A stretch of 64,000 bases of DNA from Escherichia coli (lineage in GTDB: Bacteria; Pseudomonadota; Gammaproteobacteria; Enterobacterales; Enterobacteriaceae). Position numbers and translations under genes: made by a program. Where the stretch lies: assembly GCF_009931435.1 (NCBI RefSeq), contig NZ_CP043414.1; one strand, written 5' to 3'. The notes under the pieces are model-generated. The model saw only the letters and a list, made by a program, of their open reading frames with translations. It did no database searches and was not told the DNA's origin. Positions 10,724 to 64,000 of this stretch are shown piece by piece (the first letter of the stretch is position 1; every line of letters begins with the position of its first letter).

Positions 10724-12133
10724 ATGCAACGAGGGATAGTCTGGGTAGTCGATGACGATAGTTCCATCCGTTGGGTGCTTGAACGTGCGCTCGCTGGAGC
10801 AGGTTTAACCTGTACGACGTTTGAGAACGGCGCGGAAGTGCTGGAGGCGCTGGCGAGCAAAACACCGGATGTACTGCTTTCAGATATCCGTATGCCGGGA
10901 ATGGACGGGCTTGCGCTGCTCAAGCAGATTAAACAGCGCCATCCGATGCTTCCGGTCATCATTATGACCGCACATTCCGATCTGGATGCTGCCGTCAGCG
11001 CCTATCAACAAGGGGCGTTTGATTATCTGCCCAAACCGTTTGATATCGACGAAGCCGTGGCGCTGGTTGAGCGCGCCATCAGCCATTATCAGGAACAGCA
11101 GCAACCGCGTAATGTTCAGCTTAACGGCCCGACGACCGATATCATCGGCGAAGCGCCAGCCATGCAGGACGTGTTCCGGATTATCGGTCGGCTTTCACGT
11201 TCTTCTATTAGCGTGCTGATTAACGGCGAATCCGGCACCGGTAAAGAACTGGTCGCTCATGCCCTGCATCGCCACAGTCCTCGAGCCAAAGCGCCGTTTA
11301 TCGCGCTGAATATGGCGGCTATCCCGAAGGATTTGATCGAATCAGAACTGTTCGGTCACGAGAAAGGCGCGTTTACCGGCGCGAATACCATTCGTCAGGG
11401 GCGTTTTGAACAGGCCGATGGCGGCACGTTATTCCTCGATGAAATTGGCGATATGCCGCTCGATGTACAGACGCGTTTGCTGCGCGTGCTGGCAGACGGT
11501 CAGTTTTATCGCGTTGGCGGCTATGCGCCGGTGAAAGTGGATGTGCGGATTATCGCTGCGACCCATCAGAATCTCGAACAGCGGGTACAGGAAGGCAAGT
11601 TCCGTGAGGATTTGTTCCACCGCCTGAACGTTATCCGCGTTCATCTGCCGCCGCTGCGTGAGCGTCGGGAAGATATTCCCCGTCTGGCACGCCATTTTTT
11701 ACAGGTTGCCGCGCGCGAACTGGGCGTAGAAGCGAAGTTGCTGCATCCGGAAACCGAAGCCGCGCTGACGCGTCTGGCATGGCCGGGTAACGTGCGCCAG
11801 CTGGAAAACACCTGCCGTTGGTTAACGGTGATGGCCGCCGGGCAGGAAGTGTTGATTCAGGATTTGCCTGGCGAACTGTTTGAATCAACGGTTGCGGAGA
11901 GTACTCCGCAAATGCAACCGGACAGTTGGGCAACGCTGTTAGCGCAGTGGGCAGACAGAGCGCTGCGTTCCGGTCATCAAAATTTGCTTTCCGAAGCGCA
12001 GCCTGAGCTTGAGCGGACGTTACTGACGACCGCGTTGCGACATACGCAGGGGCATAAACAGGAAGCTGCGCGGCTACTTGGCTGGGGGCGTAACACCCTG
12101 ACGCGGAAGTTAAAAGAGCTGGGGATGGAGTGA
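10724..12133 (+). CDS. glnG: sigma-54-dependent response regulator NtrC
   Basis: Start chosen at the ATG giving [12 protein letters not shown] (the ORF-track start at 10664 overlaps glnL); receiver domain, [11 protein letters not shown]+ motif, C-terminal HTH. Confidence 0.97.
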
Positions 12134-12244
12134 TTCACAGCTTGTGTGTAAAGATTGATTATTGAGCGCAAATTGCTGGTATTTTGCGCTTTACTGTTCC
12201 GATAAGTTCAGTATGATCTTGCCCGGAAAACGGGGAGAGTCATT

Positions 12245-12355
12245 ATGCTGGAATCAATAATTAATCTGGTATCGAGTGGCGCAGTTGACAGCCACACACC
12301 GCAAACTGCCGTTGCTGCCGTGCTGTGTGCTGCGATGATTGGGCTGTTTAGCTGA
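12245..12355 (+). CDS. yshB: small membrane protein, 36 aa (below the ORF-track length cutoff)
   Basis: ATG at 12245 preceded by ggggagag RBS; translation MLESIINLVSSGAVDSHTPQTAVAAVLCAAMIGLFS; position between glnG and hemN as in K-12. Confidence 0.7.
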   Translation: MLESIINLVSSGAVDSHTPQTAVAAVLCAAMIGLFS

Positions 12356-12361
12356 AGCTCG

Positions 12362-12520
12362 TTGTTTATGCCGGATGCGGAGAAAGTCGTAGGCCTGATA
12401 AGACGCGACCAGCGTCGCATCAGGCATCATGCTCAGATGCCGGATGCCGGATGCCGGATGCCGGATGCCGGATGCCGGATGCAGCGTAAACGCCTTATCC
12501 GGCCTACAAAAGCAATAATT
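12362..12520. repeat. REP/BIME cluster containing a 6-copy tandem heptamer (atgccgg)
   Basis: REP consensus units plus atgccgg x6 at 12437-12478. Confidence 0.75.
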
Positions 12521-12618
12521 TCAACAGGTTTTCTTAACCAGCGCATCAGGCAATCTTGTTCTCAGCACATTGATGGCGCTTTCGTTTTCTACTTTGTAAA
12601 CGAAGCGCCATTCACCAT

Positions 12619-13992
12619 TTAAATCACTCGTGAGAACTGCTGCATCCGCGCTTTCTGGCGCAGATAGGTATCAAAGCACATGCAAATGTTGCGGATCAGC
12701 AGGCGACCTTTCGCCGTTACCTGAATCCCCTTCTCATCCACATCCACCAGCCCATCTTTTGCTAACGGGGCAAGCAGCTTGAGATCTTCTGCAAAGTAGT
12801 CAGCGAAGTGCAAATCCCACTGTTGCTCAATGGGGGCATAATCCAGACGGAAGTTGCAGATGAGCGACTTAATCACATCGCGACGAATACAGTCATCACG
12901 CGTTAGCGCAATACCACGCCACAGCGCATTGCCTTGTTCATCCACTTGCTGATAGTACTGCTTCAACTCTTTCTGATTCTGCGCGTAGCAGTCGCCAATC
13001 ATGCTAATGGCTGAAACGCCCATCCCCAGCAGATCGGTATCGCCCTGAGTGGTGTAGCCCTGGAAGTTACGATGAAGCACGCCTTCACGTTGGGCCACCG
13101 CCAGCTCATCATCCGGGCGAGCAAAGTGATCCATACCGATAAACTGATAGCCCGATTGTGTCAGGAAGGCGATGGTTTCCTGCAGGATATCGAGTTTTTG
13201 CTGCGGACTCGGCAGGTCAGCATCTTTGATTTTACGCTGAGCAGCAAAAATGGTCGGCAAATGCGCGTAGTTAAAGACACTCAGGCGATCGGGGTTAAGT
13301 TCCGCCACGCGTTTCAGGGTAAAGGCGAAACTCTCCGGCGTCTGTTTCGGCAGGCCGTAAATCAGGTCGATGTTGGTGGAAGTAAAGCCAATCTCACGCG
13401 CATGGTTAAGCAGTGCAAAGATGAACTCTTCATCCTGCTCGCGGTTAACCAGACGTTGCACTTCTTTGTTGAAGTCCTGCACGCCCATGCTCAGGCGATT
13501 AAAGCCTTCGGCGCGTAAATGATCGAGTACATCCAGTTCGATTTCCCGCGGATCGACTTCGATCGAAATCTCCGCATCGGCATTGAACTGGAAGTTTTCG
13601 CGCAGCAACTTCATCAGTCGGCTGATTTGCGCTTTGTTCAGATACGTCGGCGTACCACCGCCCCAGTGCAATTGGCTGACGTGACGCCCGGCGAACAGCG
13701 GTGCACGATGGACGATTTCTTGCTCCAGCGCGTCCAGATACTGATCGGCCTTGTGCTGCTGGCGAGTAACAATCTTATTGCAACCGCAGAAGTAACAAAG
13801 CTTATGGCAGAACGGGATATGTACGTAGAGAGATAATGGACGCTCAGGATAGCGCGCCACGGCTTGTAAAAACGCCTGTTCGCCGAAGTCTTCTGAAAAC
13901 TCCAGCGCGGTCGGGTACGAGGTGTATCGTGGCCCGGAATAGTTATATTTCTGGATCAGGGCCAGATCCCAGTCGATTTGCTGTACAGACAT
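12619..13992 (-). CDS. hemN: oxygen-independent coproporphyrinogen III oxidase (radical SAM)
   Basis: CxxxCxxC radical-SAM motif (HIPFCHKLCYFCGCN); start taken at MSVQQIDW (457 aa). Confidence 0.95.
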   Translation of the reverse strand: MSVQQIDWDLALIQKYNYSGPRYTSYPTALEFSEDFGEQAFLQAVARYPERPLSLYVHIPFCHKLCYFCGCNKIVTRQQHKADQYLDALEQEIVHRAPLFAGRHVSQLHWGGGTPTYLNKAQISRLMKLLRENFQFNADAEISIEVDPREIELDVLDHLRAEGFNRLSMGVQDFNKEVQRLVNREQDEEFIFALLNHAREIGFTSTNIDLIYGLPKQTPESFAFTLKRVAELNPDRLSVFNYAHLPTIFAAQRKIKDADLPSPQQKLDILQETIAFLTQSGYQFIGMDHFARPDDELAVAQREGVLHRNFQGYTTQGDTDLLGMGVSAISMIGDCYAQNQKELKQYYQQVDEQGNALWRGIALTRDDCIRRDVIKSLICNFRLDYAPIEQQWDLHFADYFAEDLKLLAPLAKDGLVDVDEKGIQVTAKGRLLIRNICMCFDTYLRQKARMQQFSRVI

Positions 13993-14180
13993 GCTCACTC
14001 CTTCCGATGGCGTCTCTGGCGGCTACGGCGTACCGGCGAATGCCCGTTTCGGGTCATCAGCCGGTTGCGCAGCCACTTTTGTCGCCGCGACAACCGCTGT
14101 AGTTTAACGAATAACCACACCAGATAACATATAACCGGAAGGGTTATCAGCAGAACGGGAAGGCCCACGGCGGCAATCCG

Positions 14181-48503: not shown

Positions 48504-49271
48504 ATGGCAGATACCTCTTCAACCACCGCTGGCGCACAAACGTTATTACGCGGGCTCGCGGTTCTTAATGCTGTTTATAACGGCTGCCATGACCTGAAAA
48601 GTATCGGCGAGTTCACCGGCACGACCCGGAGCACAACCCATCGTTTAGTCACCGTTCTGGTGGAACAACGCTACCTGCGCCACGTCCCAACGCAGGGCTA
48701 CCAACTGGGCGCCAAACTGATCGAATTCGGTGCCAGAGCGCTGGAAAGCACCTCGCTGTACGAAGTTGCGCTGCCCGTTTTGCAACGCCTTGCCCGTTAC
48801 ACCCTGGACACCGTGCATCTGGGGATCGTTGAAGGCGACGAAGTGCTGTATCTGGAGAAGATCAACAGCCAGCGCGGGCTGGAAATGCGCTCACGCCCAG
48901 GCCATCGCATGCCACTGGCAATCACCGGCATCGGCAAGGCATTGATCCTCAACCGAACAGAAGAAGAGTGGCGCACGCTGTTTAAGACCTGTGGTGATGA
49001 AACAAAACTGGGCGCATTTATTCAGAACATGCGTCGTTATGCCGCGAGTGGTTTTGCTTTTGATCTGGAAGAGAACGAGCCGACTATCCGTTGCGTTGCA
49101 GCGCCGGTTTACAACGCCCGGGATGAAATTGTGGCGGCTATTTCTGTCGCCAGTACCACTACGTATATGTCACTGGCGCGTCTGGAAGAACTGGCACCTT
49201 ACGTCAAATCCTGTGCAGAAGAGATATCCGCTGAACTGGGCTGGGGTAAGCACGTCCGCAAAAATAAATAA
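48504..49271 (+). CDS. IclR-family transcriptional regulator
   Basis: Start chosen at MADTSSTTAGAQTLLRGLAVLNAV (aggag RBS); N-terminal wHTH plus C-terminal effector-domain pattern typical of IclR regulators. Confidence 0.8.
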   Translation: MADTSSTTAGAQTLLRGLAVLNAVYNGCHDLKSIGEFTGTTRSTTHRLVTVLVEQRYLRHVPTQGYQLGAKLIEFGARALESTSLYEVALPVLQRLARYTLDTVHLGIVEGDEVLYLEKINSQRGLEMRSRPGHRMPLAITGIGKALILNRTEEEWRTLFKTCGDETKLGAFIQNMRRYAASGFAFDLEENEPTIRCVAAPVYNARDEIVAAISVASTTTYMSLARLEELAPYVKSCAEEISAELGWGKHVRKNK

Positions 49272-49294
49272 ACCATGACTAAAGGAAACGGCTA

Positions 49295-50299
49295 ATGTCG
49301 GGAAACACCTCATTTATTGCCCTGGACTGGGGAACGTCATCGCTTCGGGCATGGCGTTTTGGCGATTCACCAAATCCACAAGAAAAACGTGAATTCCCGT
49401 GGGGGATCATGAAATTACCCTCCCAGGCAGCAACACGTGAGGACGCTTTCCACGATACGTTTTTACGTGTCTGCGGCGACTGGCTGGCACAATCCCCATG
49501 CCCGGTTCTGGCTTGCGGCATGATCGGCAGTGCGCAAGGGTGGCAACCCGCAGCTTATTTACCTTGCCCGGTCACTCTCGAGGGTCTGGCAAAGCAGTTG
49601 ACGCCTGTTATCCACCAGCAGCAGACAATGCTGCATATTATTCCTGGCGTGATTAAAGAAGGTGAAATGCCCGAAGTAATGCGTGGTGAAGAGACACAAA
49701 TCTTCGGTGCTATCTCGATGGAACCGGCCCTGCAAAACGCGATCCGCCAGGGTATGCCTGTGCTGATTGGCTTACCTGGCACACATGCGAAATGGGCGGT
49801 AGTTGAAAACAACACCATTACCGATTTCCGAACCTTTATGACTGGCGAGTTATTTGATGTTTTATCCCGCCATTCGATTCTCGGTGCCACCATGCGTTCG
49901 GGAGATGAACCGCACTGGGATGCCTTCACCCATGGGCTGACAGCAGCACAAGAGCATCATCAGACCGGATTATTATCGACGCTGTTTTCGACCCGTTCGC
50001 GCCTGCTGACCAGTAATCTTACGCCGTCCTCACAGGGGGATTACCTTTCAGGATTACTGATAGGCCATGAATTATGCGGTCTGGCATCCAGTTTGCTACG
50101 TGATTTACCCGCCACAACACCGATCGCCTTAATCGGTAGCGCCACTCTGAACAGCCGCTATTCACAAGCATTCAGCCACGTTTTTCCCGACAGACAGCTA
50201 CACGCCATTCCTAATGCCACTGAACAGGGGTTATGGCGAATCGCCCACGTTGCCGGGCTACTCTCCACCAACGCCAGGGAATGTACCCATGCCATTTAA
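49295..50299 (+). CDS. 2-dehydro-3-deoxygalactonokinase-like sugar-acid kinase (DgoK family)
   Basis: 334 aa; N-terminal IALDWGTSSLRAW and VMRGEETQIFGA / TGELFD..LS.HS.LGA / LSGLLIG motifs align with E. coli DgoK as I recall it. Confidence 0.8.
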   Translation: MSGNTSFIALDWGTSSLRAWRFGDSPNPQEKREFPWGIMKLPSQAATREDAFHDTFLRVCGDWLAQSPCPVLACGMIGSAQGWQPAAYLPCPVTLEGLAKQLTPVIHQQQTMLHIIPGVIKEGEMPEVMRGEETQIFGAISMEPALQNAIRQGMPVLIGLPGTHAKWAVVENNTITDFRTFMTGELFDVLSRHSILGATMRSGDEPHWDAFTHGLTAAQEHHQTGLLSTLFSTRSRLLTSNLTPSSQGDYLSGLLIGHELCGLASSLLRDLPATTPIALIGSATLNSRYSQAFSHVFPDRQLHAIPNATEQGLWRIAHVAGLLSTNARECTHAI

Positions 50300-50918
50300 T
50301 ACGCTTTTGCAAAAAACCGGGTTAGTCGCCATTTTACGCGGCGTGAAACCGGATGAGATTGTCGCCATCGGTGAAAAGCTGTATGCCGCTGGATTTCGCC
50401 TGATTGAGATTCCCATGAACTCGCCGGAGCCGTTGCAAAGTATCAGTTTACTGCGCGACGCCCTGCCTAAGGACTGCCTGGTCGGAGCCGGAACGGTGCT
50501 TTCGGTGGAGCAAGTCGTCGCGGTTAAAGAGGCTGGAGGCCAGATTATCGTGATGCCGCATTGCGATACTGCGGTGATCCGTCGTGCCCGTGCGCTGGGT
50601 ATGTATTGTGCGCCTGGCGTCGCTACGCCCACCGAAGCTTTTGCTGCCATTGAACATGGCGCCAATGCCATCAAGCTGTTCCCGGCTGAACAAATTACGC
50701 CTGAAGTCACCAAAGCCTGGCGTGCGGTTATTCCACAATCCGTTCCGATGTTACCGGTTGGCGGTATCACTCCAGACACAATGGCGCGTTATCTGAGCCA
50801 CGGCGCAAACGGCTTTGGCCTCGGTTCTGCGCTATATCGCCCCGGCATGACGCCAGAGCAAGTCTATGAAAATGCAGTACTGTTTATGAACGCATGGAAC
50901 AATTTAAATAGCAAATAA
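50289..50918 (+). CDS. 2-dehydro-3-deoxy-6-phosphogalactonate (KDPGal/KDPG) aldolase-like
   Basis: Start at MPFNTLLQKTGLVAILRG (209 aa), overlapping the kinase gene by 11 bp; AILRG...EIP.NSP...GAGTVL...GG(I/V)TP motifs of the Eda/DgoA family. Confidence 0.8.
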   Translation: MPFNTLLQKTGLVAILRGVKPDEIVAIGEKLYAAGFRLIEIPMNSPEPLQSISLLRDALPKDCLVGAGTVLSVEQVVAVKEAGGQIIVMPHCDTAVIRRARALGMYCAPGVATPTEAFAAIEHGANAIKLFPAEQITPEVTKAWRAVIPQSVPMLPVGGITPDTMARYLSHGANGFGLGSALYRPGMTPEQVYENAVLFMNAWNNLNSK

Positions 50919-50942
50919 CTGATAAATAAGGATATAAAAGCA

Positions 50943-51917
50943 ATGATAAAACATCTTACCTTACCGAAAAAAATGGCTGCAATGGTACTTCTTGCCGGCG
51001 CTGCCCTCAGCACTGCGCCTGTACAGGCGGCCTCCTGGCCAACCAAACAAATCGAGTTAGTCGTACCCTACGCGGCCGGAGGCGGTACGGACCTGGTTGC
51101 CCGAGCCTTTGCTGATGCCGCCAAAAACCATTTACCCGTCAGCATCGGGGTTATCAATAAACCTGGCGGTGGCGGCGCTATCGGCCTGAGTGAAATCGCC
51201 GCTGCCCGCCCTAACGGTTACAAAATGGGTTTAGGCACGGTTGAACTGACCACCCTTCCCAGCCTCGGAATGGTGCGTTTTAAAACCAGCGACTTTAAAC
51301 CCATTGCCCGTCTGAATGCGGATCCGGCGGCTATCACCGTCCGTGCCGATGCGCCGTGGAATAGCTATGAAGAATTTATGACTTACGCCAAAGCGAATCC
51401 CGGAAAAGTACGCATTGGTAACTCAGGCACCGGAGCAATCTGGCATCTGGCGGCAGCTGCACTGGAAGACAAAACGGGCGTGAAGTTTTCTCATGTCCCG
51501 TATGACGGCGCAGCCCCTGCCATTACAGGCCTGTTAGGCGGGCATATTGAAGCGGTTTCCGTAAGCCCAGGTGAAGTTATCAATCATGTGAAAGGCGGCA
51601 AGCTGAAGACACTGGTAGTGATGGCGGATGAACGTATGAAAACCATGCCTGACGTCCCGACGTTAAAAGAGAAAGGCGTTGATCTCTCCATCGGCACCTG
51701 GCGCGGCCTGATTGTGTCGCAAAAAACGCCGCAGGATGTGGTGGATGTGCTGGCAAAGGCAGCAAAAGAGACGGCTGAAGAGCCTGCATTCCAGGATGCA
51801 CTGCAAAAGTTGAATCTCAACTATGCATGGCTTGATGGTGCCAGCTTCCAGACCCAAATCAACGAGCAGGAAAAGTACTTTGACGAGCTTCTGACTCGCC
51901 TGGGCCTGAAAAAATAA
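50943..51917 (+). CDS. tctC: tripartite tricarboxylate transporter, periplasmic substrate-binding protein (TctC/Bug family)
   Basis: 324 aa; signal peptide then ASWPTKQIELVVPYAAGGGTDLVAR, typical Bug-family N-terminus. Confidence 0.8.
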   Translation: MIKHLTLPKKMAAMVLLAGAALSTAPVQAASWPTKQIELVVPYAAGGGTDLVARAFADAAKNHLPVSIGVINKPGGGGAIGLSEIAAARPNGYKMGLGTVELTTLPSLGMVRFKTSDFKPIARLNADPAAITVRADAPWNSYEEFMTYAKANPGKVRIGNSGTGAIWHLAAAALEDKTGVKFSHVPYDGAAPAITGLLGGHIEAVSVSPGEVINHVKGGKLKTLVVMADERMKTMPDVPTLKEKGVDLSIGTWRGLIVSQKTPQDVVDVLAKAAKETAEEPAFQDALQKLNLNYAWLDGASFQTQINEQEKYFDELLTRLGLKK

Positions 51918-51933
51918 TCCCGAGGTACGGTCG

Positions 51934-52440
51934 ATGAACACAAAACAGTCTGTTGCTCAACTCGCCGTACCGCACCGCAAGCGCCTTTCATCCACTGTGG
52001 TGGTGGCGCTGTTACTTTGTGTGGTTGCTGGCGCGGTGATAATTAATGCCGCTGATTTTCCAGCAACTGCCATTGAAACGGATCCCGGTGCAAGTGCCTT
52101 CCCTACTTTCTATGCCTGCGCTCTGATTGTGCTCGCTGTCTTACTGGTGATACGCGATCTTTTGCTGGCAAAACCAGTCCCTTGCGCCAACGCACAGGAA
52201 AAACCGGCATTAAGGAAAACGGCAACAGGAATTGCGGCAACCGCGTTTTATATTGTGGCGATGAGCTACTGCGGTTATCTCGTTACTACTCCTGTTTTCC
52301 TCATCGTCATTATGACGTTGATGGGCTACAGGCGATGGGTACTCACTCCGGGTATTGCGCTGCTGTTAACGGCAATCCTCTGGTTGCTGTTTGTCGAAGC
52401 GTTACAGGTGCCATTGCCTGTCGGCACATTTTTCGAATAA
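51934..52440 (+). CDS. tctB: tripartite tricarboxylate transporter small membrane subunit (TctB-like)
   Basis: 168-aa 4-TM protein between tctC-like and tctA-like genes. Confidence 0.7.
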   Translation: MNTKQSVAQLAVPHRKRLSSTVVVALLLCVVAGAVIINAADFPATAIETDPGASAFPTFYACALIVLAVLLVIRDLLLAKPVPCANAQEKPALRKTATGIAATAFYIVAMSYCGYLVTTPVFLIVIMTLMGYRRWVLTPGIALLLTAILWLLFVEALQVPLPVGTFFE

Positions 52441-52452
52441 CAGGGGCCTGCA

Positions 52453-53943
52453 ATGTTTGAAAGTGAACTTTTAACTCAGGGGTTTTCGACATTACTCAGT
52501 AATCCTCAGGCGCTGCTGTTTGCCACGTTTGGAGTGATGCTGGGTATTATGATTGGCGCTCTGCCTGGCCTGACAGCGACCATGGGTGTGGCGATTTTGC
52601 TGCCTTTCACCTACGGCATGGAGCCTGTTTCTGGCTTGTTGATGATTTGCGGTGTCTTTTTTGGTGGTGTGTATGGTGGTTCTATCACCGCAATTTTGCT
52701 CAAAATTCCCGGTACACCTGCCGCCGCTGCCACCGCCATTGACGGTTATGAGTTAACGAAGCAGGGAAAAGCCGGGCTGGCATTAAGTGCCGCCACGTTC
52801 TCTTCTTTTAGCGGTGGAACGCTCAGCATTATCGTATTGATGTTTCTCTCTCCGGTCCTTGCTAGTTGGGCGTTGAAATTTAGTGCCTCGGAGTCCTTCG
52901 CCCTGGCAACCTTCGGACTGAGCATTATTGCCAGTATTTCCGGTGAGTCGCTGATTAAAGGGCTGATCGCCGGGATTGGCGGATTAATGATCGCAACGAT
53001 AGGCCTCGATCCGATGGGCGGTTTTCCACGCTTTACGGGCGGGTTTGTGGAACTGATGAATGTGCCATTTATCCCGGTGATGATTGGTCTGTTTGCTGCT
53101 TCAGAAGCGTTCCGTTCTATGGAACAAAATCAGCATATTCGTCAGAGCGCGAACGTGGCTATCGGCAGTCTGTTACTGCCCTGGCAAACGCTACGCCGCA
53201 TCGCATTAACCATTTTGCGCTCATCAGGATTAGGGGTTTTTATCGGCATGATCCCCGGTGCGGGGGCAGATATTGCAGCTTTTGTTGCCTATAACGAAAC
53301 TCGTCGTTTCAGTAAGACGCCTGAAAACTTTGGTAAGGGTGAGATTAAGGCGGTGGCCTCCTGTGAGGCAGGCGCGAATGGCTGCACCGGTGGCGCATTG
53401 TTACCTATGCTGACGTTGGGGATCCCAGGCGATGCGGTAACTGCCATCATGCTGGGCGCGTTAACGTTACAAGGGATGCAGCCAGGCCCACTGATGTTTA
53501 CCGACCACGGCGATATGGTTTATACGTTATTTGTCGGCATGATCTTCTGTTACTTCATGCTGCTAGTTCTTGGACTGCTCTCTTTGAAAGTCATCGGTAA
53601 CGTGGTGAAAATTCCCGGCAATATTCTCACACCGATGATCCTCGCACTTTGTGTGGTCGGGACTTATGCGTTGAACAATAGCCTGTTTGATGTTGGCATT
53701 ATGCTGATTGCAGGCGTGGTGGGCTATTTCATGCAAAAAGGGGGATATCCGGCATCACCCGTAGTGCTGGCATTGATTATGGGGCCAATGGCGGAAAGTA
53801 ATTTTCGCCGTGCGCTGTCGCTTTCAGGGGGGTCACTCGACTTCCTGTATACCCGACCGATAACCCTGGCATTGCTGACACTGGCAGCCTTTACGCTACT
53901 GACGCCAATAATACGCAAAATTATGCGCTTACGGCGTCAGTAA
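52453..53943 (+). CDS. tctA: tripartite tricarboxylate transporter large permease subunit (TctA-like)
   Basis: 496-aa polytopic membrane protein with duplicated GxPGxxA / IPGxPA-type motifs. Confidence 0.85.
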   Translation: MFESELLTQGFSTLLSNPQALLFATFGVMLGIMIGALPGLTATMGVAILLPFTYGMEPVSGLLMICGVFFGGVYGGSITAILLKIPGTPAAAATAIDGYELTKQGKAGLALSAATFSSFSGGTLSIIVLMFLSPVLASWALKFSASESFALATFGLSIIASISGESLIKGLIAGIGGLMIATIGLDPMGGFPRFTGGFVELMNVPFIPVMIGLFAASEAFRSMEQNQHIRQSANVAIGSLLLPWQTLRRIALTILRSSGLGVFIGMIPGAGADIAAFVAYNETRRFSKTPENFGKGEIKAVASCEAGANGCTGGALLPMLTLGIPGDAVTAIMLGALTLQGMQPGPLMFTDHGDMVYTLFVGMIFCYFMLLVLGLLSLKVIGNVVKIPGNILTPMILALCVVGTYALNNSLFDVGIMLIAGVVGYFMQKGGYPASPVVLALIMGPMAESNFRRALSLSGGSLDFLYTRPITLALLTLAAFTLLTPIIRKIMRLRRQ

Positions 53944-55989: not shown

Positions 55990-56245
55990 CGCCATAGCCG
56001 CTAAATCTGATGATTAAGCTCACACAATTTCAACGATTTTTTTAATCTCAAAACCATACAGCATCAAAAAATTTGTTGCTGTATGCCACTCTTTGACTCC
56101 CTTCACATTCGTCATCACACCACCTGTTGAATGCAAAAATTTCGTTGCTGTGCGGCAAACTTTTTTCCTGTTTTATGCCGCTTTTCTCCTGAATACTCGC
56201 TCTCAGAACAACTGGATCGTTTAAACATCAGACAGGAGATTTACC

Positions 56246-56914
56246 ATGACGCAATCCATTTTTCAGGCTCAACCCTTTGAATTACCTTTTGATCCGCGCA
56301 CAACTGCACTGGTCATGATCGACATGCAGCGTGACTTTGTCGAAGCAGGGGGCTTCGGTGAGGCACTGGGCAATGATGTTTCACTGGTACGCACGGCTAT
56401 CGCACCATGTACAGAGGTGCTGGCAGCCGCACGTCAAAAAGGAATTATGGTTATTCATACTCGTGAAGGCCATCGTGCAGACTTAAGCGACTGCCCGCCA
56501 GCCAAACTGACGCGCGGCGGAAAAACCTTTATTGGTGAACCAGGACCGATGGGACGCATTCTGGTCAGAGGTGAAGCGGGTCATGACATCATTCCTGAAC
56601 TGTACCCAGTGACAGGCGAACCGGTGATTGATAAGCCCGGTAAAGGCGCTTTTTATCAAACCGACTTACATCTGATTTTGCAAAACCACGGTATCAAGAC
56701 GCTGATAGTTTGTGGTGTAACAACCGAAGTTTGCGTAACCACCACCGTGCGCGAAGCAAATGACCGTGGCTATGAATGCATTATCCCGGAAGATTGTGTC
56801 GGCTCATATTTCCCGGAATTCCAGAAATATGCCCTCGAGATGATCAAAGCACAAGGTGCCATTTTCGGTTGGGTGAGTGATTCCAAAGCCATTATTGCAG
56901 GTCTGGAAGGCTAA
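56246..56914 (+). CDS. isochorismatase-family cysteine hydrolase (RutB/BiuH-like amidohydrolase)
   Basis: 222 aa; D-K-C triad context (ALVMIDMQRDF, DKPGKGAF, VCGVTTEVC) and a C-terminal FGWVSDS block resembling RutB as I recall it. Confidence 0.75.
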   Translation: MTQSIFQAQPFELPFDPRTTALVMIDMQRDFVEAGGFGEALGNDVSLVRTAIAPCTEVLAAARQKGIMVIHTREGHRADLSDCPPAKLTRGGKTFIGEPGPMGRILVRGEAGHDIIPELYPVTGEPVIDKPGKGAFYQTDLHLILQNHGIKTLIVCGVTTEVCVTTTVREANDRGYECIIPEDCVGSYFPEFQKYALEMIKAQGAIFGWVSDSKAIIAGLEG

Positions 56915-56919
56915 CGCCG

Positions 56920-57780
56920 ATGGTACAGGTGACGCTTTGCGCATCATCGTTGGGATATCTTTTCCCGCAAAATGAAACGCAAGATTTACGTCTGCATAGT
57001 GCTTTTAAACATGCGGTAAATCTGTATTCAGAAGCGGGAACATTCATCACTCTGTTGTGTGCGCAAACGTATCTGAATCTCCCTGATGCCGCCAGAGTCA
57101 ACCTGCCTGAGAATTGGGACTGGCGAAGAGAGATTGCCCATTCAGATCCCATTCAGTTAACCCCAGGCTTGTTACAAACACCTCGCTTTTGCGTGGTGCT
57201 TCATAACACAACACTTTGGCAACCGCCATTTGTGGGGGGAATGCTGACACTTGAGGCATTCCCTTTGGTTTTCCAGCACTACCCAACGATGGCATCGCAA
57301 CGGCTTTTATTTTGTCTGGAGCATAACGTTCAAAGCACATTGCACCTGCCGGATAGTCTCACGCACCAGGGATTAGCGATTATGGAACATCCAGATGCAC
57401 TGGAACGCCAGGTGCCACAACTGATCGGCTTTGGTAAAGGCTTAACGCCCGATGGAGATGACTATTTGTTGGGCTATCTGGCAGCGCTCTGGTTATGGCA
57501 ACTCCCTGCAACACTTGCCGATCATCAATACCGGTTGCAGCAGGCAATTGATCAACATGCGCACAACACCACGGATATCAGTCGTCATTATCTGGAGCGT
57601 GCGCTTCAGGGGCATTTTTCAGAACCGATTTGCCAGTTACTCGCACAACTGGTTGGGGGCGCATCGGAAATGACAATCGCATCCTGTGCAGAACAGGTCA
57701 TGCAATTTGGCGCAACGTCAGGAGTAGATTGCCTTGCAGGAATGCTGCATGGCTTTCGAACCCTGAACACCATGAATTGA
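56920..57780 (+). CDS. DUF2877-like protein (YlbF/YahE-like putative carbamoyltransferase subunit)
   Basis: 286 aa, 6 bp after the hydrolase gene; GFGKGLTPDGDDYLLG motif; assignment to DUF2877 is from memory of the LTPxGDD signature and the conserved position next to FdrA-like/DUF1116 genes. Confidence 0.55.
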   Translation: MVQVTLCASSLGYLFPQNETQDLRLHSAFKHAVNLYSEAGTFITLLCAQTYLNLPDAARVNLPENWDWRREIAHSDPIQLTPGLLQTPRFCVVLHNTTLWQPPFVGGMLTLEAFPLVFQHYPTMASQRLLFCLEHNVQSTLHLPDSLTHQGLAIMEHPDALERQVPQLIGFGKGLTPDGDDYLLGYLAALWLWQLPATLADHQYRLQQAIDQHAHNTTDISRHYLERALQGHFSEPICQLLAQLVGGASEMTIASCAEQVMQFGATSGVDCLAGMLHGFRTLNTMN

Positions 57781-57874: not shown

Positions 57875-59434
57875 ATGAAAGTTAAATATAAAGTTTTCAG
57901 CAATCTTTATCAGGACTCGGTTTCTCTGATGCAGATTTCCGCGCAAATCAGTAAGTTGCCCGGTATTCAACAGGCCTCGGTCGTCATGGGAACACCCAAT
58001 AATCTCGAACAATTGCGCGATGCGGGTCTGGGTAACGAAATCAACGCCAGTCCCAATGATTTAGTGATTGCAGTCATGGGTGAAGAAGATATTTGCAATG
58101 AAGCACTGATACTGGCCCAGCAACGTCTGACCAGCAAACCCGATGATGAAACGGATAGTGGCATTAAAACACCGGAAAATGTCAGCCTGGAAATGGCACT
58201 GGAAGCCGACACCGAAGCCAACCTGGCACTCATTTCTGTACCGGGAGACTACGCCGCCGCCGAAGCAATTAAAGCGTTAAACCTCGGAATGAACGTGATG
58301 ATGTTCAGCGATAACGTCAGTATCGGGCAGGAAAAATCCATCAAAACACTTGCCCGAGAACGTCAGCGCATCGTAATGGGACCTGATTGTGGAACCGCCA
58401 TTGTTAACGGCATTCCGTTAGGCTTCGCTAATGTGGTGAAACGCGGAGCAATTGGTGTTATTGGCGCGTCAGGCACCGGGCTACAGGAAGTGACTTGCCG
58501 AATCGACCAGCTCGGAGCGGGTATTTCTCAGGCGTTGGGAACAGGCGGGCATGATCTCAGTGAAGAGATTGGTGGAATATCGATGCTCTTCGCTTTAGAT
58601 GCGCTGGCGCAAGACGATGAAACTCGCGTGATTGTGCTTATTTCAAAACCGCCTTCACCGATCGTTGCCCGGGCTATTCTGGAGCGCGCCGAGGCTTGTG
58701 GAAAACCCGTGGTGGTGAATTTCCTCGGTGCGAATCCGCATGATCTGGCACGTCCCAATATCACCGCTGCCGCCACACTTGCCAGCGCCGCAAATATCGC
58801 CGTGGCAGTACTGAATGATCAGCCACTTCCGACTGTCGAGACCGAGATTTCCTGCGACGATCTCACAATGTTACAAAACGCCTGCCAGCGTCTGCCAGCC
58901 CATCGCCAGGCGATACGCGGTGTTTTCGCCGGAGGAACCTTCTGTTACGAAGCGCAACTTATCTGCCAGCAAAAGGGATTCAGCGCCGCCTCCAATACGC
59001 CAGTTGCGGGTAATCGTACTCTGGCAAATATCTGGCAAAGCAAAGGTCACACGCTGATCGATATGGGCGACGATGATTTCACCCGTGGCAAACCGCATCC
59101 AATGATCGACCCGACTCTGCGCAATCAACGTCTGCTCAACGAACTCAACGACTCACACACTGCCGTCGTGTTATTCGACCTGGTACTTGGTTATGGCGCT
59201 TCCGCTACGCCTGCCAGCGAATTACTGGACCAACTTTCACACATCGACATGAATAACGCACCGTTGCTGATTGCGCACGTTTGCGGAACGGAAGCTGATC
59301 CGCAAATACGCAGTCAGCAGATAAGCGCACTACAAAATGCGGGCATCATCATTGCCAGCAGCAATGCACAGGCGGCGCTATGGGCCAGCGCCGTTGCGCA
59401 GACTCAGTTGCAGAAAAAGGGGCTAAACGCATGA
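57875..59434 (+). CDS. FdrA-like protein (CoA-binding/succinyl-CoA-synthetase-like fold)
   Basis: 519 aa; N-terminus YQDSVSLMQISAQISKLPGIQQASVVMGTPNN aligns with E. coli FdrA; internal NVMMFSDNV, MGPDCGT and VIGASGTG motifs. Confidence 0.8.
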   Translation: MKVKYKVFSNLYQDSVSLMQISAQISKLPGIQQASVVMGTPNNLEQLRDAGLGNEINASPNDLVIAVMGEEDICNEALILAQQRLTSKPDDETDSGIKTPENVSLEMALEADTEANLALISVPGDYAAAEAIKALNLGMNVMMFSDNVSIGQEKSIKTLARERQRIVMGPDCGTAIVNGIPLGFANVVKRGAIGVIGASGTGLQEVTCRIDQLGAGISQALGTGGHDLSEEIGGISMLFALDALAQDDETRVIVLISKPPSPIVARAILERAEACGKPVVVNFLGANPHDLARPNITAAATLASAANIAVAVLNDQPLPTVETEISCDDLTMLQNACQRLPAHRQAIRGVFAGGTFCYEAQLICQQKGFSAASNTPVAGNRTLANIWQSKGHTLIDMGDDDFTRGKPHPMIDPTLRNQRLLNELNDSHTAVVLFDLVLGYGASATPASELLDQLSHIDMNNAPLLIAHVCGTEADPQIRSQQISALQNAGIIIASSNAQAALWASAVAQTQLQKKGLNA

Positions 59435-60855
59435 ATACCTTATTTAATCAGCCTTTGAAGGTCGTGAACGCGGGACTACACAGTTTTGCTGACAATATTC
59501 AACATGCCGGGGGAAGCGCAATTGCACTCAACTGGCAGCCACCAGCACAAGGCGATATTGACGCTGGATTGGATCTGGCATCGTTGCTACGTCATCCACT
59601 AGTAGAAAATGCCAATCAAATCGCCATGACACGTTATCTCGAAGCACAACCCGTGCTGGTGGATGTCATGCTCGCTAAAGAGGCCATTCCAGCAATGGCT
59701 GAACAAAAACGTATTTTGCACTCTGGTCCGCCGATTGCCTGGGAAGAGATGTGTGGTCCGGTAAAAGGGGCGATTATTGGTGCCATGCTGTACGAAGGTT
59801 GGGCCACCAGCCAGCAAGACGCTGAAAACCAGATAAACACAGGCGAAATCGACCTTGCCCCTTGTCATCATTATCACGCGGTTGGACCAATGGCAGGCAT
59901 CATCAGCCCGTCGATGCCGTTATGGGTGGTAGAAAACAAAACCAACGGCCACCGTACTTTTAGCAATTTCAATGAAGGTCTGGGTAAGGTTCTCCGTTTT
60001 GGTGCCAATAACGATGAAGTTCTCAATCGTCTGGCCTGGATGCGCGATGAACTGGCACCGGCAATGAAAGCAGCAATCGCACAACACGGCGAGCTGGAAC
60101 TCAAGCCATTAATGGCGCAGGCGCTGCATATGGGGGATGAAGTTCATAACCGCAATGCTGCCGCTACCGGTTTGCTGATTAAGCGCCTGCTCCCGGCATT
60201 GCTGGCCTGCTCTATTCCACAGGAACATATCCAGCGCGTCGTGGCATTTATCACCAGTAACGATCACTTCTTCCTCAATCTGTCGATGGCTGCCTGTAAA
60301 GCGATGATGGATGCCGCCGCCAATGTACCGTTCAGTTCAATGGTTACGGTGATGGCGCGTAACGGGGTGAATTTTGGTATTCGGCTTTCCGGTACTGGCG
60401 ATCGCTGGTTCCAGGCTCCTGCCAATGCAGTTGAAGGTCTGTTCTTCCCCGGATTTGGCGTCGACGATGCCGCTGCTGACCTGGGTGATAGCGCAATTAC
60501 CGAAACCGCAGGTGTGGGTGGCTTCGCGATGGCGTCATCTCCAGCGATCGTCAAATTTGTGGGAGGCACCCCTGCCGATGCCACCAATAACAGCCGTAGG
60601 ATGCAAGCAATCACCCTCGGTGGTAACCCCGCATTTACACTTCCTGCCCTCAATTTTGCCCCCACCGCAGCAGGGATTGATGCGCGTAAAGTGACCGATC
60701 GCGGCATTTTACCGGTCATCAATACGGGTATCGCCCACAAACAAGCGGGGGTCGGGCAAATTGGTGCCGGGATCACCACTGCGCCGATGGCCTGTTTTGT
60801 CGCCGCTGTACGTGCACTGTCTGAGATCGTCGCAAAGGAGAACCATCATGGTTAA
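59431..60855 (+). CDS. DUF1116-family protein (YlbE/YahG-like)
   Basis: Start at MNTLFNQPLKV, overlapping the FdrA-like stop (ATGA); 474 aa; family call from memory. Confidence 0.7.
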   Translation: MNTLFNQPLKVVNAGLHSFADNIQHAGGSAIALNWQPPAQGDIDAGLDLASLLRHPLVENANQIAMTRYLEAQPVLVDVMLAKEAIPAMAEQKRILHSGPPIAWEEMCGPVKGAIIGAMLYEGWATSQQDAENQINTGEIDLAPCHHYHAVGPMAGIISPSMPLWVVENKTNGHRTFSNFNEGLGKVLRFGANNDEVLNRLAWMRDELAPAMKAAIAQHGELELKPLMAQALHMGDEVHNRNAAATGLLIKRLLPALLACSIPQEHIQRVVAFITSNDHFFLNLSMAACKAMMDAAANVPFSSMVTVMARNGVNFGIRLSGTGDRWFQAPANAVEGLFFPGFGVDDAAADLGDSAITETAGVGGFAMASSPAIVKFVGGTPADATNNSRRMQAITLGGNPAFTLPALNFAPTAAGIDARKVTDRGILPVINTGIAHKQAGVGQIGAGITTAPMACFVAAVRALSEIVAKENHHG

Positions 60856-61804
60856 GCCACTGGCTGTTGTCGCAGTTGGCGGCAATGCGCTCATTCAGGA
60901 CGAGCAACGCAATAGTATTCCCGATCAATATGTTGCAGTGATGGAAAGCGTGCAGCATATCGTTGATATGGTTGAAGCCGGATGGGACCTGGTGCTTACC
61001 CACGGTAATGGCCCGCAGGTGGGCTTTATTCTGCGCCGCTCTGAACTCGCCAGTAACGAAGTTTCTCCGGTTCCACTTGATTACGCCGTGGGTGATACAC
61101 AAGGTGCAATTGGCTACATGTTCCAGAAAGCGCTGCATAACGAATTGGCTCGCCGTGGCATAAACAAACCGGTAATTGCGCTGGTGACACAAACGCGAGT
61201 CTGCCCACATGACGATGCTTTCACCAGCCCCAGTAAACCGATTGGCGCGTTTCTCGATGAAGCAACGGCCCTACAACGCCAACAGCAACTCGGCTGGACG
61301 CTGATGGAGGACGCCGGGCGTGGTTGGCGGCGTACAGTTCCCTCTCCTGCGCCACTGGAAATTATTGAGCACGACACCATCGCTCACCTGGTGCGCCAGG
61401 GATATCTGGTTATTGCCTGCGGCGGTGGCGGTATTCCGGTGGTGCGAGACGGACAACAACTGAAAGGTGTGGAAGCCGTGATCGATAAAGATCTGGCCTC
61501 CGCGCTGCTCGCCAGTCAGTTAGGCGCAGATCTGCTGGTGATCCCCACCGGTGTAGAAAAAGTGGCGATTAACTTTGGTACACCACAACAACAGTGGCTC
61601 GACGCTATCAGCGTTGCCGAAGCGCAAACGCTGTTACGGGAAGGTCAGTTTGGTGTCGGCAGTATGCAGCCCAAAGTGGAAGCCATTGTTGATTTCATCA
61701 ATGCCAGCCAACAACAAGGCAAACAGGCCAGCGGCCTGATTACTTCACCGCAAACCATAAAAGCAGCCCTTTCGCATCAGAGCGGCACATGGATAACCCT
61801 TTAA
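60848..61804 (+). CDS. carbamate kinase
   Basis: 318 aa; VVAVGGNAL and THGNGPQVG amino-acid-kinase motifs; 8-bp overlap with the upstream gene. Confidence 0.85.
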   Translation: MVKPLAVVAVGGNALIQDEQRNSIPDQYVAVMESVQHIVDMVEAGWDLVLTHGNGPQVGFILRRSELASNEVSPVPLDYAVGDTQGAIGYMFQKALHNELARRGINKPVIALVTQTRVCPHDDAFTSPSKPIGAFLDEATALQRQQQLGWTLMEDAGRGWRRTVPSPAPLEIIEHDTIAHLVRQGYLVIACGGGGIPVVRDGQQLKGVEAVIDKDLASALLASQLGADLLVIPTGVEKVAINFGTPQQQWLDAISVAEAQTLLREGQFGVGSMQPKVEAIVDFINASQQQGKQASGLITSPQTIKAALSHQSGTWITL

Positions 61805-61820: not shown

Positions 61821-62210
61821 ATGACTACAACACTTTTAGCCGTTAACGGAACGCTGATGCGTGGCCTGGAACTCAACCCAAATATGCAAAAAGCGGGCGG
61901 CATTTTTGTCCGTGAAGACCGAACTGACGCCCATTACAGGTTGTGGAGTATTAACGATCGTCATCCGGGAATGATTCGCGTGAATGAAGGAGGAACACAC
62001 GTCGACGTAGAAATTTGGCAATTACCACTGACCAGTTTTGCCGCTCTGTTAATGAGCGAACCCGCTGGGCTGGCAATTGGCAAAATCAAACTTGCCGATG
62101 GTAGCGAAGTGCTGGGCGTACTGGCAGAAAACTGGCTGACCGAAGGCCAACGGGAAATTACAGAACTGGGTAGCTGGCGCAAATACACCGGGCATTTTCA
62201 TACTGTGTAA
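61821..62210 (+). CDS. small cytoplasmic protein of unknown function (possibly GGCT/AIG2-like or allophanate-hydrolase C-terminal-domain-like)
   Basis: 129 aa, no TM segment; NGTLMRG near the N-terminus weakly resembles the YGSL(x)RG motif of gamma-glutamyl cyclotransferase-like folds. Confidence 0.45.
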   Translation: MTTTLLAVNGTLMRGLELNPNMQKAGGIFVREDRTDAHYRLWSINDRHPGMIRVNEGGTHVDVEIWQLPLTSFAALLMSEPAGLAIGKIKLADGSEVLGVLAENWLTEGQREITELGSWRKYTGHFHTV

Positions 62211-62235: not shown

Positions 62236-63459
62236 ATGCGTAAAAAAGAAGAGAATCTGAATACAGCATCAGGATTGCGTATTGCCATGATTTTACTGGG
62301 TATTGCCGTCACACCTGTGCTGTTGTCATCCTCAAGCCTCGGCAATCAACTTTCCAGCGGCAGTTTAATTAGCGTCGTATTGTTAGGCGGCGTCATTCTG
62401 ACCTTACTTTCAGCCATCACCATTAGCGTGGGAGAAAAAGCCCGCCTGCCAACGTATGGCATTGTGAAATATTCGTTTGGCGAAAAAGGGGCCATCGCCA
62501 TTAACATTTTGATGGCGATAAGTCTGTTCGGCTGGATTGCCGTTACCGCCAATATGTTTGGTCATTCGGTACATGACTTACTGGCTCAACATGGACTGGA
62601 AGTTCCACTAGCACTGTTAGTGGCTGCTGGCTGTGTCATTTTTGTCGCCTCTACAGCATTTGGTTTTGCCGTTCTGGGAAAAATTGCCCAGGTTGCCGTG
62701 CCGGTTATCGCGCTGGTGCTGTGTTACATCCTCTATGTGGCAACCCATACCGAAGTGGCAGCACCAGCGGTGATTGTGGAGATGAATACGGGTGTCGCTG
62801 TTTCCACCGTTGTTGGCACCATTATTGTGCTGGTTGCCACACTGCCTGATTTCGGTAGTTTTGTGCATAACCGCAAACATGCGCTGATTGCCGCAGGCGT
62901 GACGTTTCTGGTTGCCTACCCTCTGCTCTACTGGGCGGGAGCAACGCCGAGCGCCATTAGTGGTCAGGGATCTTTACTGGGTGCGATGGCGGTATTCGGT
63001 GCGGTTCTGCCCGCGGCGCTGTTGTTGATTTTCGCCTGCGTCACCGGTAACGCGGGCAATATGTTCCAGGGCACGCTGGTGGTTTCCACACTGCTTACCC
63101 ACTTTCCCAAATGGCAGATTACCGTGGCGCTGGGTATCCTTTCCGCCATCGTAGGCAGTCTGGATATTATGGCGTGGTTTATTCCGTTTCTGCTGTTCCT
63201 GGGTATCGCCACGCCACCCGTTGCCGGAATTTATATCGCTGACTTTTTCCTTTATCGCCGTAATGGCTATCAAGAGTCAGTGTTAGCCCAGGAGTCACAG
63301 ATCAAAGTGCTGACATTCGCAGCATGGATCATAGGTGCAGCGGTTGGCTTTATGACCGTAAAAGGCTTATTCACCCTGACGACAATCCCTTCGGTAGACT
63401 CGATTCTGGTGGCATGTATCGCGTATGCGATTCTCAGTCGGGCAAGTCAACGCCGCTAA
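62236..63459 (+). CDS. NCS1-family nucleobase permease (CodB-like)
   Basis: 407-aa polytopic protein; C-terminal ATPPVAGIYIADFFLYRRNG resembles CodB AIPPVGGVIIADYLMNRR. Confidence 0.8.
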   Translation: MRKKEENLNTASGLRIAMILLGIAVTPVLLSSSSLGNQLSSGSLISVVLLGGVILTLLSAITISVGEKARLPTYGIVKYSFGEKGAIAINILMAISLFGWIAVTANMFGHSVHDLLAQHGLEVPLALLVAAGCVIFVASTAFGFAVLGKIAQVAVPVIALVLCYILYVATHTEVAAPAVIVEMNTGVAVSTVVGTIIVLVATLPDFGSFVHNRKHALIAAGVTFLVAYPLLYWAGATPSAISGQGSLLGAMAVFGAVLPAALLLIFACVTGNAGNMFQGTLVVSTLLTHFPKWQITVALGILSAIVGSLDIMAWFIPFLLFLGIATPPVAGIYIADFFLYRRNGYQESVLAQESQIKVLTFAAWIIGAAVGFMTVKGLFTLTTIPSVDSILVACIAYAILSRASQRR

Positions 63460-63536: not shown

Positions 63537-64000
63537 ATGTTCATCTCAGACGAAACGCTTCGTGTTATTCATCTGGTCGCCAGACACCAGAGCATTACCA
63601 CCGCAGCCGAACAGTTAAATAAAGTCCCTTCCGCCATCAGTTACACCATCAAGAAAGTGGAAGAGAGCCTGGGCGTTGAACTGTTCATTCGTAAGGGACG
63701 CTATATTGAATTATCTCCGGCGGGGAGTTACTTCATCGAACATAGCAAAACTATTCTGGGCGACCTGGAAGCATTAAAGCGCAACACAGTGCTGATTCAC
63801 GATGGTATTGAACGTGAACTGACAATTGCGGTGAACAATATTATTCCTGGTGATTTGCTGGTGGCATTTATTCGAGATTTTGAACGGCAATTCACATCAA
63901 CAACACTGACGGTAGATCTTGAGGTATACAACGGCTGCTGGGATGCGCTGTACAGTAAGCGTGCTGATCTGGTCTACGGTGCTCCTCATGCAGTGCCAAG
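63537..64000 (+). CDS. LysR-family transcriptional regulator, 5' part (continues beyond window)
   Basis: N-terminal HTH (LRVIHLVARHQSITTAAEQLNKVPSAISYTIKKVEESLGVELF); not MetR by sequence. Confidence 0.8.
   Translation, partial: MFISDETLRVIHLVARHQSITTAAEQLNKVPSAISYTIKKVEESLGVELFIRKGRYIELSPAGSYFIEHSKTILGDLEALKRNTVLIHDGIERELTIAVNNIIPGDLLVAFIRDFERQFTSTTLTVDLEVYNGCWDALYSKRADLVYGAPHAVP

Follow-up and report, generated by a model that had tools for sequence, protein, structure and literature searches.

The window analysed in this work, i.e., a stretch of 64,000 nucleotides of the Escherichia coli chromosome to which all the positions given below refer, harbors on its plus strand (56246-56914) the gene under study, encoding a cysteine amidohydrolase whose active site, as read from alignments and from a predicted structure, matches that of triuret hydrolase (TrtA) rather than those of the ureidoacrylate amidohydrolase RutB or of biuret hydrolase (BiuH). 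The most likely reaction of this enzyme, to which we would assign an even chance, is the hydrolysis of triuret, or of a closely similar planar acyl-urea, at its terminal amide, feeding a LysR-controlled module that would yield ATP. Triuret is a urea oligomer arising from the oxidation of urate by peroxynitrite, and it has been reported in human urine. Through the operon opened by the hydrolase gene, ammonia and ATP are probably obtained from a small urea oligomer, along a route that has not been described so far. A more specific version, in which a TrtA-type hydrolase, a third class of AllFG enzyme, and a carbamate kinase helped by an AH_C protein would convert triuret to ATP, NH3, and CO2 by phosphorolysis, is put forward tentatively, its chances lying clearly below even; such a route would need neither biuret hydrolase nor allophanate hydrolase nor urease.

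The product of the gene matches the Pfam family Isochorismatase (PF00857) with 161.9 bits (E-value 2e-47, cutoff 27). The search of the PDB sequences placed it nearest to TrtA (6XIX and 6XJ4, 269 and 264 bits, respectively), followed by BiuH (234-239 bits) and RutB (106 bits), the identity being 58% to TrtA (6XIX), 54% to the Rhizobium BiuH, and about 30% to RutB. When the AlphaFold model of the hydrolase (predicted local distance difference test, pLDDT, 94.1) was compared with known structures, ranks 1-6 of the Foldseek search were occupied by TrtA, with template modeling (TM) scores of 0.94-0.96 and a root-mean-square deviation (rmsd) of 1.2 Å; the corresponding values were 0.91-0.95 and 1.4-1.7 Å for BiuH, and 0.85-0.89 and 2.5-3.3 Å for RutB. 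The TrtA of Herbaspirillum sp. BH-1 (6XIX, 6XJE, 6XJ4; PMC7948467) is, by both sequence and fold, the best match to the hydrolase. Among the NCBIfam equivalog models, that of BiuH (NF050097) gave 279.6 bits against a cutoff of 370 and that of RutB (TIGR03614) 113.4 bits against 377.95; the model of the nicotinamidase/pyrazinamidase PncA (NF008623) gave only a partial match (47.7 bits, cutoff 174). On the basis of the profile cutoffs and of the fold ranking, the assignments to RutB, PncA, YcaC, and YecD were rejected. A previous reading of the sequence alone (hereafter, the sequence-only reading) had described the enzyme as similar to RutB and BiuH alike. These comparisons give TrtA as the best fit; the similarity to BiuH is borne out, that to RutB is real but distant, and the two are unequal.

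The sequence-only reading had also derived, from the pairing of the hydrolase with a CodB-like permease, a pyrimidine-derived or small ureide substrate. The first of these two options would see the hydrolase as a RutB-like step of a pyrimidine-derived pathway, the substrate entering the cell through a CodB-like cytosine/uracil permease. RutB (8BKD) does share with the hydrolase the superfamily, the triad chemistry (acting, in RutB, on a ureido amide), and about 30% of the residues, the permease of the operon is an NCS1 member most similar to CodB, and the paper describing the BEN2908 genome, relying on BLAST identity alone, read the hydrolase of the extraintestinal pathogenic E. coli (ExPEC) island GR29 (metE..ysgA) as RutB-like and embedded it in a pyrimidine/carbamate scheme. 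Nevertheless, we consider this explanation very improbable, since by sequence, profile, and fold RutB falls far behind TrtA and BiuH (106 vs. 269 bits and an rmsd of 2.5-3.3 vs. 1.2 Å in the comparison with TrtA), neither RutA nor the other rut genes are present in the island, and in other phyla the same hydrolase is accompanied by a different, unrelated permease. Moreover, the permease of the window (62236-63459, plus strand, 407 amino acids; Pfam Transp_cyt_pur, 53.5 bits) reaches 146 bits on the NCBIfam cytosine permease model, whose cutoff is 326, so that it is a member of the NCS1 family and not a CodB equivalog. The second option fared better: the sequence relatives support a pathway opening with the hydrolysis of an amide and point to a small ureide as the likely substrate.

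The D/K/C triad recognized by the sequence-only reading is made up of D26, K130, and C163, which align with D24, K129, and C162 of TrtA and are invariant in an alignment of 32 sequences including TrtA and BiuH, the catalytic cysteine being present throughout. The paper on TrtA (PMC7948467) describes, besides the triad just given, ligand contacts at F29, E72, K132, and Q202 and a cis-peptide formed by V157-T158. The residues contacting triuret in the 6XJE structure are all kept in the hydrolase (D26, F31, E74, K133, and Q203), and V158-T159 corresponds, as far as the identity of the residues is concerned, to the cis-peptide of TrtA. The comparison of more than 500 sequences disclosed six positions discriminating TrtA from BiuH (F35/Y, N41/Y, A134/S, E160/D, Y187/T, and I205/V, the TrtA residue being given first; PMC7948467); in the hydrolase, all of them are in the TrtA state (F37, N43, A135, E161, Y188, and I206) and none in the BiuH state. 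The indel pattern also follows that of TrtA, and the AlphaFold model shows the N-terminal two-strand sheet that TrtA possesses and that BiuH lacks according to the TrtA paper (PMC7948467).

Relatives were retrieved by scanning one genome per species, which yielded 80 loci, or 81 if the BL21 locus (L001) is included. Those of them that contain AllF/G-like genes come from Enterobacterales, Vibrionaceae, Shewanella, Pasteurellaceae, Burkholderiales, Neisseriales, Dyella, Mycobacterium, Chloroflexi, and alphaproteobacterial metagenome-assembled genomes (MAGs). The primary matches of the 80 species carry the TrtA residue at the six discriminating positions, with just one position varying, i.e., that of A135 (A134 of TrtA), occupied by a BiuH-like serine in the six Mycobacterium loci and in one Chloroflexota MAG; the second hydrolases of two loci (L068 and L076) exhibit instead the full BiuH pattern (Y, Y, S, D, T, V). 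Genes similar to allF and allG are located within 10 kb of the hydrolase gene in 71 of the 80 species loci, or in 72 of 81 when that of BL21 is counted, and most of these loci also contain a carbamate kinase and an AH_C protein, the usual order being hydrolase-(AllH)-AllF-AllG-carbamate kinase-AH_C-permease. The AllH-like gene was undetectable in 14 of the 72 loci carrying AllF/G. In three alphaproteobacterial loci, a full-length allophanate hydrolase (AtzF) replaces the stand-alone AH_C beside TrtA-like, AllHFG-like, and carbamate kinase genes. In the neighbor-joining tree, the BiuH sequences fall outside, and the Herbaspirillum TrtA and the loci lacking AllFG branch first, two of the latter carrying BiuH and one of these two also AtzF; the other hydrolases make up a derived clade almost entirely linked to AllF/AllG, whose members are 69-92% identical across phyla. 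The enzyme of the window differs from the Herbaspirillum TrtA in belonging to this derived, highly conserved clade. Among the 81 loci, BiuH is confined to those without AllFG; hence, the AllFG-bearing module seems to replace biuret hydrolase.

These data also bear on the possibility that the enzyme acts in vivo as a biuret hydrolase, or as a biuret/triuret generalist, and that the resulting allophanate is phosphorolysed by the AllFG-like enzyme to carbamoyl phosphate and carbamate, which appears unlikely to us. BiuH (6AZO/5BK6 from R. leguminosarum and 6XJM from Rhodococcus) belongs to the same subfamily, with 51-54% identity, a closely similar fold, and the same triad and ligand-binding residues; the top NCBIfam match is the BiuH model, many close homologs are named 'biuret amidohydrolase' by JGI, a natural generalist (RhdBiuH) exists (PMC7948467), and allophanate is just one carbonyl shorter than oxalurate. 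However, 279.6 bits fall short of the equivalog cutoff, the six discriminators and the indels are of the TrtA type (BiuH possessing insertions absent from both the hydrolase and TrtA), the genuine BiuH paralogs co-located with some relatives are of the BiuH type at the same positions, and the activity of TrtA on biuret is lower than that on triuret by a factor of about 10^5 (PMC7948467). Given the missed cutoff and the TrtA-type discriminators, BiuH was rejected as the best label.

The reading of the hydrolase as an enzyme of the TrtA type gains further meaning from the genes located downstream, which encode members of all three transcarbamylase subunit families (FdrA, DUF1116, and DUF2877). 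A DUF2877/AllH-like subunit (56920-57780; 286 amino acids; Pfam AllH, 97 bits) is followed by an FdrA/AllF-like one with a CoA-ligase-like fold (57875-59434; 519 amino acids; 495 bits on the NCBIfam FdrA subfamily model, cutoff 433) and by a DUF1116/AllG-like one (59431-60855; 474 amino acids; Pfam AllG, 330 bits), whose start overlaps the stop of the allF-like gene by 4 nucleotides. The carbamate kinase gene (60848-61804; 318 amino acids; 362.3 bits on TIGR00746 arcC, cutoff 358.25, and 373.5 bits on NF009007, cutoff 266) overlaps in turn the AllG-like gene by 8 nucleotides; all these genes lie on the plus strand. The identity of the island AllF, AllG, AllH, and carbamate kinase is 41, 48, 33, and 38% to AllF, AllG, AllH, and AllK of E. 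coli K-12, and 42, 46, 25, and 48% to YahF, YahG, YahE, and YahI, respectively. Seventy of the 74 AllG-type sequences aligned (that of the window included) are nearer to the AllG-like protein of the window than to K-12 AllG or YahG, the four exceptions being K-12 AllG, K-12 YahG, the second copy in L016, and L056. The AllFG-like set therefore represents a third orthologous group, traveling with the TrtA-type hydrolase, and its proteins are not orthologs of K-12 AllFGH, from which they differ (33-48% identity) about as much as from YahEFG. Since the downstream set is separate from AllFGH, the statement of the sequence-only reading that the substrate is not related to oxamate is probably right.

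Two paralogous clusters deserve mention here. The locus of Avibacterium gallinarum (L016) contains two AllF/AllG-like pairs (4286-7200 and 10001-14000), one of the YahFG type and the other of the TrtA-linked type, beside the hydrolase gene, so that the paralogous groups are distinct. The yahEFG-yahI-yahJ cluster of K-12 (L083, 335925-342507) shows the same H-F-G-kinase order as the island, but its hydrolase partner, YahJ, is a metal-dependent amidohydrolase. This points to a general plan: a hydrolase supplies a carbamoyltransferase of the AllFG type and a carbamate kinase, the substrates differing from cluster to cluster.

It might also be supposed that two unrelated functions simply lie side by side, one being that of a triuret/biuret hydrolase and the other that of an additional oxalurate carbamoyltransferase, which together with its carbamate kinase would end the breakdown of allantoin or purines. 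AllFGH has indeed been demonstrated experimentally to be an oxamic transcarbamylase (PMC11326118), a metagenome paper on nitrifiers, in which trtA/biuH lie beside allFGHK and codB, treats them as two adjacent pathways, and an AllD-like dehydrogenase is located beside the cluster in one of the relatives (L065). Yet K-12 already possesses allFGHK for oxalurate, the allantoin genes allB, allC, allD, and allE are absent from the island (among the window open reading frames and in the BL21 annotation), the linked AllG-like proteins constitute a separate orthologous group that accompanies the hydrolase across phyla, and the genes show translational coupling and travel on plasmids as a unit. Furthermore, as the window contains neither a biuret hydrolase nor a full-length AtzF, a lone TrtA would release one ammonia and then, after spontaneous decarboxylation, leave biuret. 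E. coli is not known to encode a biuret hydrolase or an AtzF elsewhere, so that biuret would probably be a dead end. Because a lone TrtA would stop at this point, a single pathway best explains the tight linkage of the hydrolase, AllFG, and carbamate kinase genes, and the coexistence of two unrelated functions is, in our judgment, quite improbable.

The gene following that of the carbamate kinase (61821-62210, plus strand) encodes a stand-alone allophanate-hydrolase C-domain protein of 129 amino acids (Pfam AH_C, 140.8 bits), identical at 128 of 129 residues to c4763 of the uropathogenic E. coli (UPEC) CFT073, whose structure is available (PDB 5C5Z). It shares the fold family with c4763 and with the C-terminal domain of allophanate hydrolase (4ISS, 4GYR); unlike allophanate hydrolase, it lacks the amidase-signature domain, reaching 99 bits on TIGR02713 against a cutoff of 511. 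In four Mycobacterium loci, the carbamate kinase and AH_C are fused into a single protein of about 450-470 amino acids (Pfam AA_kinase + AH_C; L064:12651-14060, L067:13632-14984, L073:13629-14987, and L077:13691-15046), an architecture that links AH_C functionally to the kinase; on this basis, AH_C is assigned to the end of the pathway at which the kinase acts. In the work of Fan et al. (2013), the C domain of allophanate hydrolase is reported to use the N-carboxy compound made by the amidase domain. As for c4763, it has so far been discussed only in connection with the use of urea, a later paper citing it as a urea-related fitness factor.

The conservation of AH_C together with the hydrolase leads to a further explanation, according to which the hydrolase would act on a different small acyl-urea or ureide accommodated by a TrtA-like pocket, e.g., formylurea, oxaluramide, carboxybiuret, or allophanate, and the two proteins would constitute an analog of allophanate hydrolase, the one performing the deamidation to an N-carboxy compound and the other the subsequent decarboxylation. 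TrtA displays a trace activity on formylurea and nitrobiuret (PMC7948467), and the tight conservation of the clade, with homologs of the hydrolase 80-88% identical across classes, fits a specific ligand. On the other hand, every residue contacting triuret in 6XJE is conserved, the fusion partner of AH_C is the carbamate kinase and not the hydrolase, and none of the candidate compounds has independent support; we regard this explanation as rather unlikely.

Returning to triuret, homology and synteny lead us to infer what the hydrolase acts on, in which order the steps follow, what the AllFG-like enzyme cleaves, and which part AH_C plays. The NCS1 permease would import the substrate, from which the hydrolase, via a thioester at Cys163, would release NH3, the other product being an N-carboxy ureide, which in the case of triuret would be 1-carboxybiuret. 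The AllF/AllG(/AllH)-type carbamoyltransferase would then use phosphate to cleave the N-carbamoyl group(s) of carboxybiuret and/or allophanate, giving carbamoyl phosphate. It is known that carbamate kinase yields ATP from carbamoyl phosphate; here, carbamoyl phosphate and ADP would be converted into ATP and carbamate, and at this kinase end AH_C might decarboxylate an N-carboxy species (carbamate or N-carboxycarbamate). In this way, a urease-negative E. coli would recover all the nitrogen and gain ATP. The first step is modeled on TrtA, which converts triuret into 1-carboxybiuret and NH3 (PMC7948467), and the second one on the AllFGH of K-12, which interconverts oxalurate and phosphate with carbamoyl phosphate and oxamate (PMC11326118). 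Carboxybiuret, allophanate, and oxalurate are all N-acyl ureas with a terminal carboxylate, a comparison that is our own. The two model systems also differ from the island. TrtA is associated with BiuH, AtzF, and often TrtB, whereas the partners of the hydrolase are the AllFG(H)-type carbamoyltransferase, a carbamate kinase, and the stand-alone AH_C. The island genes belong to the same three families as AllFGH and are likewise followed by a carbamate kinase gene, as in AllFGH/AllK (PMC11326118), and they probably share the same logic by analogy, i.e., acyl-urea phosphorolysis to carbamoyl phosphate and then to ATP; however, their order is H-F-G-K, as in yahEFG-yahI, they are unlinked to allantoin genes, and the AllH-like subunit appears dispensable in the 14 loci mentioned above.

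Several points weigh against the assignment of triuret and against the scheme. At the level of the hydrolase, TrtA exceeds BiuH only slightly in overall identity (58 vs. 54%), and the NCBIfam match is the BiuH model, no TrtA model having turned up. In addition, single mutations fail to switch the specificity of TrtA (PMC7948467), and therefore the residue signatures may not fully predict the substrate. At the level of the pathway, BiuH and AtzF were looked for in the island of the window and not found, the search not extending to trtB. The sole AllFGH characterized to date acts on oxalurate (PMC11326118), and the AllD-like dehydrogenase of L065 (Ldh_2 family) is accompanied there by amidases, fitting an oxalurate-type role in that locus. 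The activity of K-12 AllFGH was reported to require all three genes, yet the AllH-like one is undetectable in 14 of 72 loci. AH_C is strongly conserved and would have no obvious substrate if allophanate were phosphorolysed to carbamate, so that at least one step of the scheme is missing or wrong. Finally, the availability of triuret in the habitats of E. coli is undocumented in the literature searched.

In that literature, no paper links triuret to E. coli, and the triuret terms come together only in the paper on nitrifiers and in that on TrtA, the former alone mentioning carbamate kinase, with the gene sets regarded as separate pathways; likewise, no paper containing at least two of c4763-c4768, and none pairing allophanate hydrolase with N-carboxycarbamate, was found. 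Two omics papers on UPEC in urine do not mention the island genes in their main text. One UPEC transcriptome paper reporting fdrA and ylbE was set aside, as it concerns the allFGH of K-12 and not the island, and the search for Biolog phenotypes of E. coli B on biuret or parabanate gave nothing usable.

If the pathway proposed is correct, it would give a function to a widely conserved gene set bearing in databases only the label 'cysteine hydrolase / DUF2877 / FdrA / DUF1116 / allophanate hydrolase-related', it would add a third substrate class to the AllFGH carbamoyltransferases, and it would explain why trtA/biuH adjoins allFGHK in nitrifiers. About 29% of the complete E. coli genomes would then carry a compact, mobile route to nitrogen and ATP from a product of urate oxidation, free of urease; the carriers would include BL21, E. 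coli C, CFT073-type UPEC, and avian pathogenic E. coli (APEC). Likewise, a biochemical role would be assigned to the 'UPEC-specific' c4763 and to the module found on ExPEC/APEC chromosomes, on IncF plasmids, and in E. coli B and C. Should the proposed pathway turn out to be wrong, the TrtA-type label still corrects the RutB-like reading published for the ExPEC island.

The organization of the hydrolase gene and of its neighbors is that of an operon. The open reading frame of 222 amino acids (56246-56914) begins with ATG, is preceded by a ribosome-binding site (AGGAG, 56234-56238), and in BL21 is annotated by RefSeq as 'cysteine hydrolase family protein' (WP_000194414.1). As the sequence-only reading had recognized, it is the first gene of the operon, with an intergenic region of 256 bp upstream and co-directional genes downstream, the successive spacings of which are 5, 94, -4, -8, 16, 25, and 77 bp. 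The frequency of terminator-like sites is not above that in shuffled sequence. The last gene, truncated by the end of the window (63537-64000, plus strand), encodes a LysR-family regulator, annotated in BL21 with a LysR substrate-binding domain.

The intergenic region contains several conserved elements. An inverted repeat with arms of 14 nucleotides, 93% complementary, forms a palindromic operator-like site, CATACAGCATCAAA-AAA-TTTGTTGCTGTATG (56055-56085), which is probably the site of the LysR-type regulator. A second, half-palindromic site, TGCAAAAATTTCGTTGCTG, repeats it in direct orientation on the plus strand (related site 56132-56150) and is followed by an AAAC/TCATTT..CTGT element, the whole spanning 56132-56171; enterobacterial, Dyella, and Silvimonas loci have a similar sequence at the corresponding place, and this second site is probably an activator site overlapping the -35 region. 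The hexamer region GAATACT (56191-56197, plus strand; TATACT in relatives), also conserved upstream of the related genes, may tentatively be taken as the -10 region. A simple sigma-70 scan called no plus-strand promoter upstream of the hydrolase gene, and thus the promoter assignment relies on the conserved motifs alone. The operator-like motif GCATCAAA-N3-TTTGNTGC is kept upstream of the hydrolase gene in Gamma- and Betaproteobacteria, and its core, CAAW-N3-WTTG, was found in 40 of the 81 upstream regions of the related loci against 1.7 +/- 1.3 in shuffled ones. Most related loci also retain a LysR gene, either upstream or downstream of the operon. The palindrome and the co-conserved LysR gene would fit a LysR-activated promoter placed directly before the hydrolase gene.

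The sequence of the window matches best that of a goat isolate (99.6% identity), followed by BL21, E. coli B, and E. coli C (97.8%). The operon block lies between ysgA and metE in 1559 of the 5426 complete E. coli genomes, and since these two genes are adjacent in K-12, the whole block is an insertion. The island is mobile, being carried by BL21, UPEC, and APEC and not by K-12. A copy about 94% identical was detected on 82 large conjugative plasmids of E. coli and Klebsiella; in the one plasmid inspected, which is of the IncF type (L084, NZ_CP104593.1, 100522-108700), the full unit from the hydrolase to the LysR gene is present and adjoins iron-transport and bacteriocin-immunity genes. The homology begins about 14 bp before the ATG, and therefore the plasmid copy has a different upstream region.

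Some minor observations concern the related loci. In several non-enterobacterial ones, the TrtA-type gene is followed by a gene for a conserved and highly hydrophobic protein of about 515-530 amino acids matching no Pfam or NCBIfam model (L065:10731-12275, L068:10723-12306, L076:10684-12282, and L062:12347-13942; 57% identity between L065 and L068), which is probably a permease standing in for the NCS1 transporter. Two records, titled Chryseobacterium sp. 18061 (L007) and, in the case of a MAG, Desulfotomaculum (L056), contain an enterobacterial-type locus, with hydrolases 86% and 82% identical to that of E. coli, respectively, and a gene order that in L007 is fully enterobacterial; for both of them, contamination, a binning error, or a recent transfer is more likely than vertical descent.

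In the window itself, a second accessory block, absent from K-12, is located between rmuC and udp (48504-53943) and encodes an IclR regulator, a 2-dehydro-3-deoxygalactonokinase, a KDPGal-type aldolase, and a TctCBA tripartite tricarboxylate transporter. The core genes udp and ysgA thus have a separate insertion on either side.

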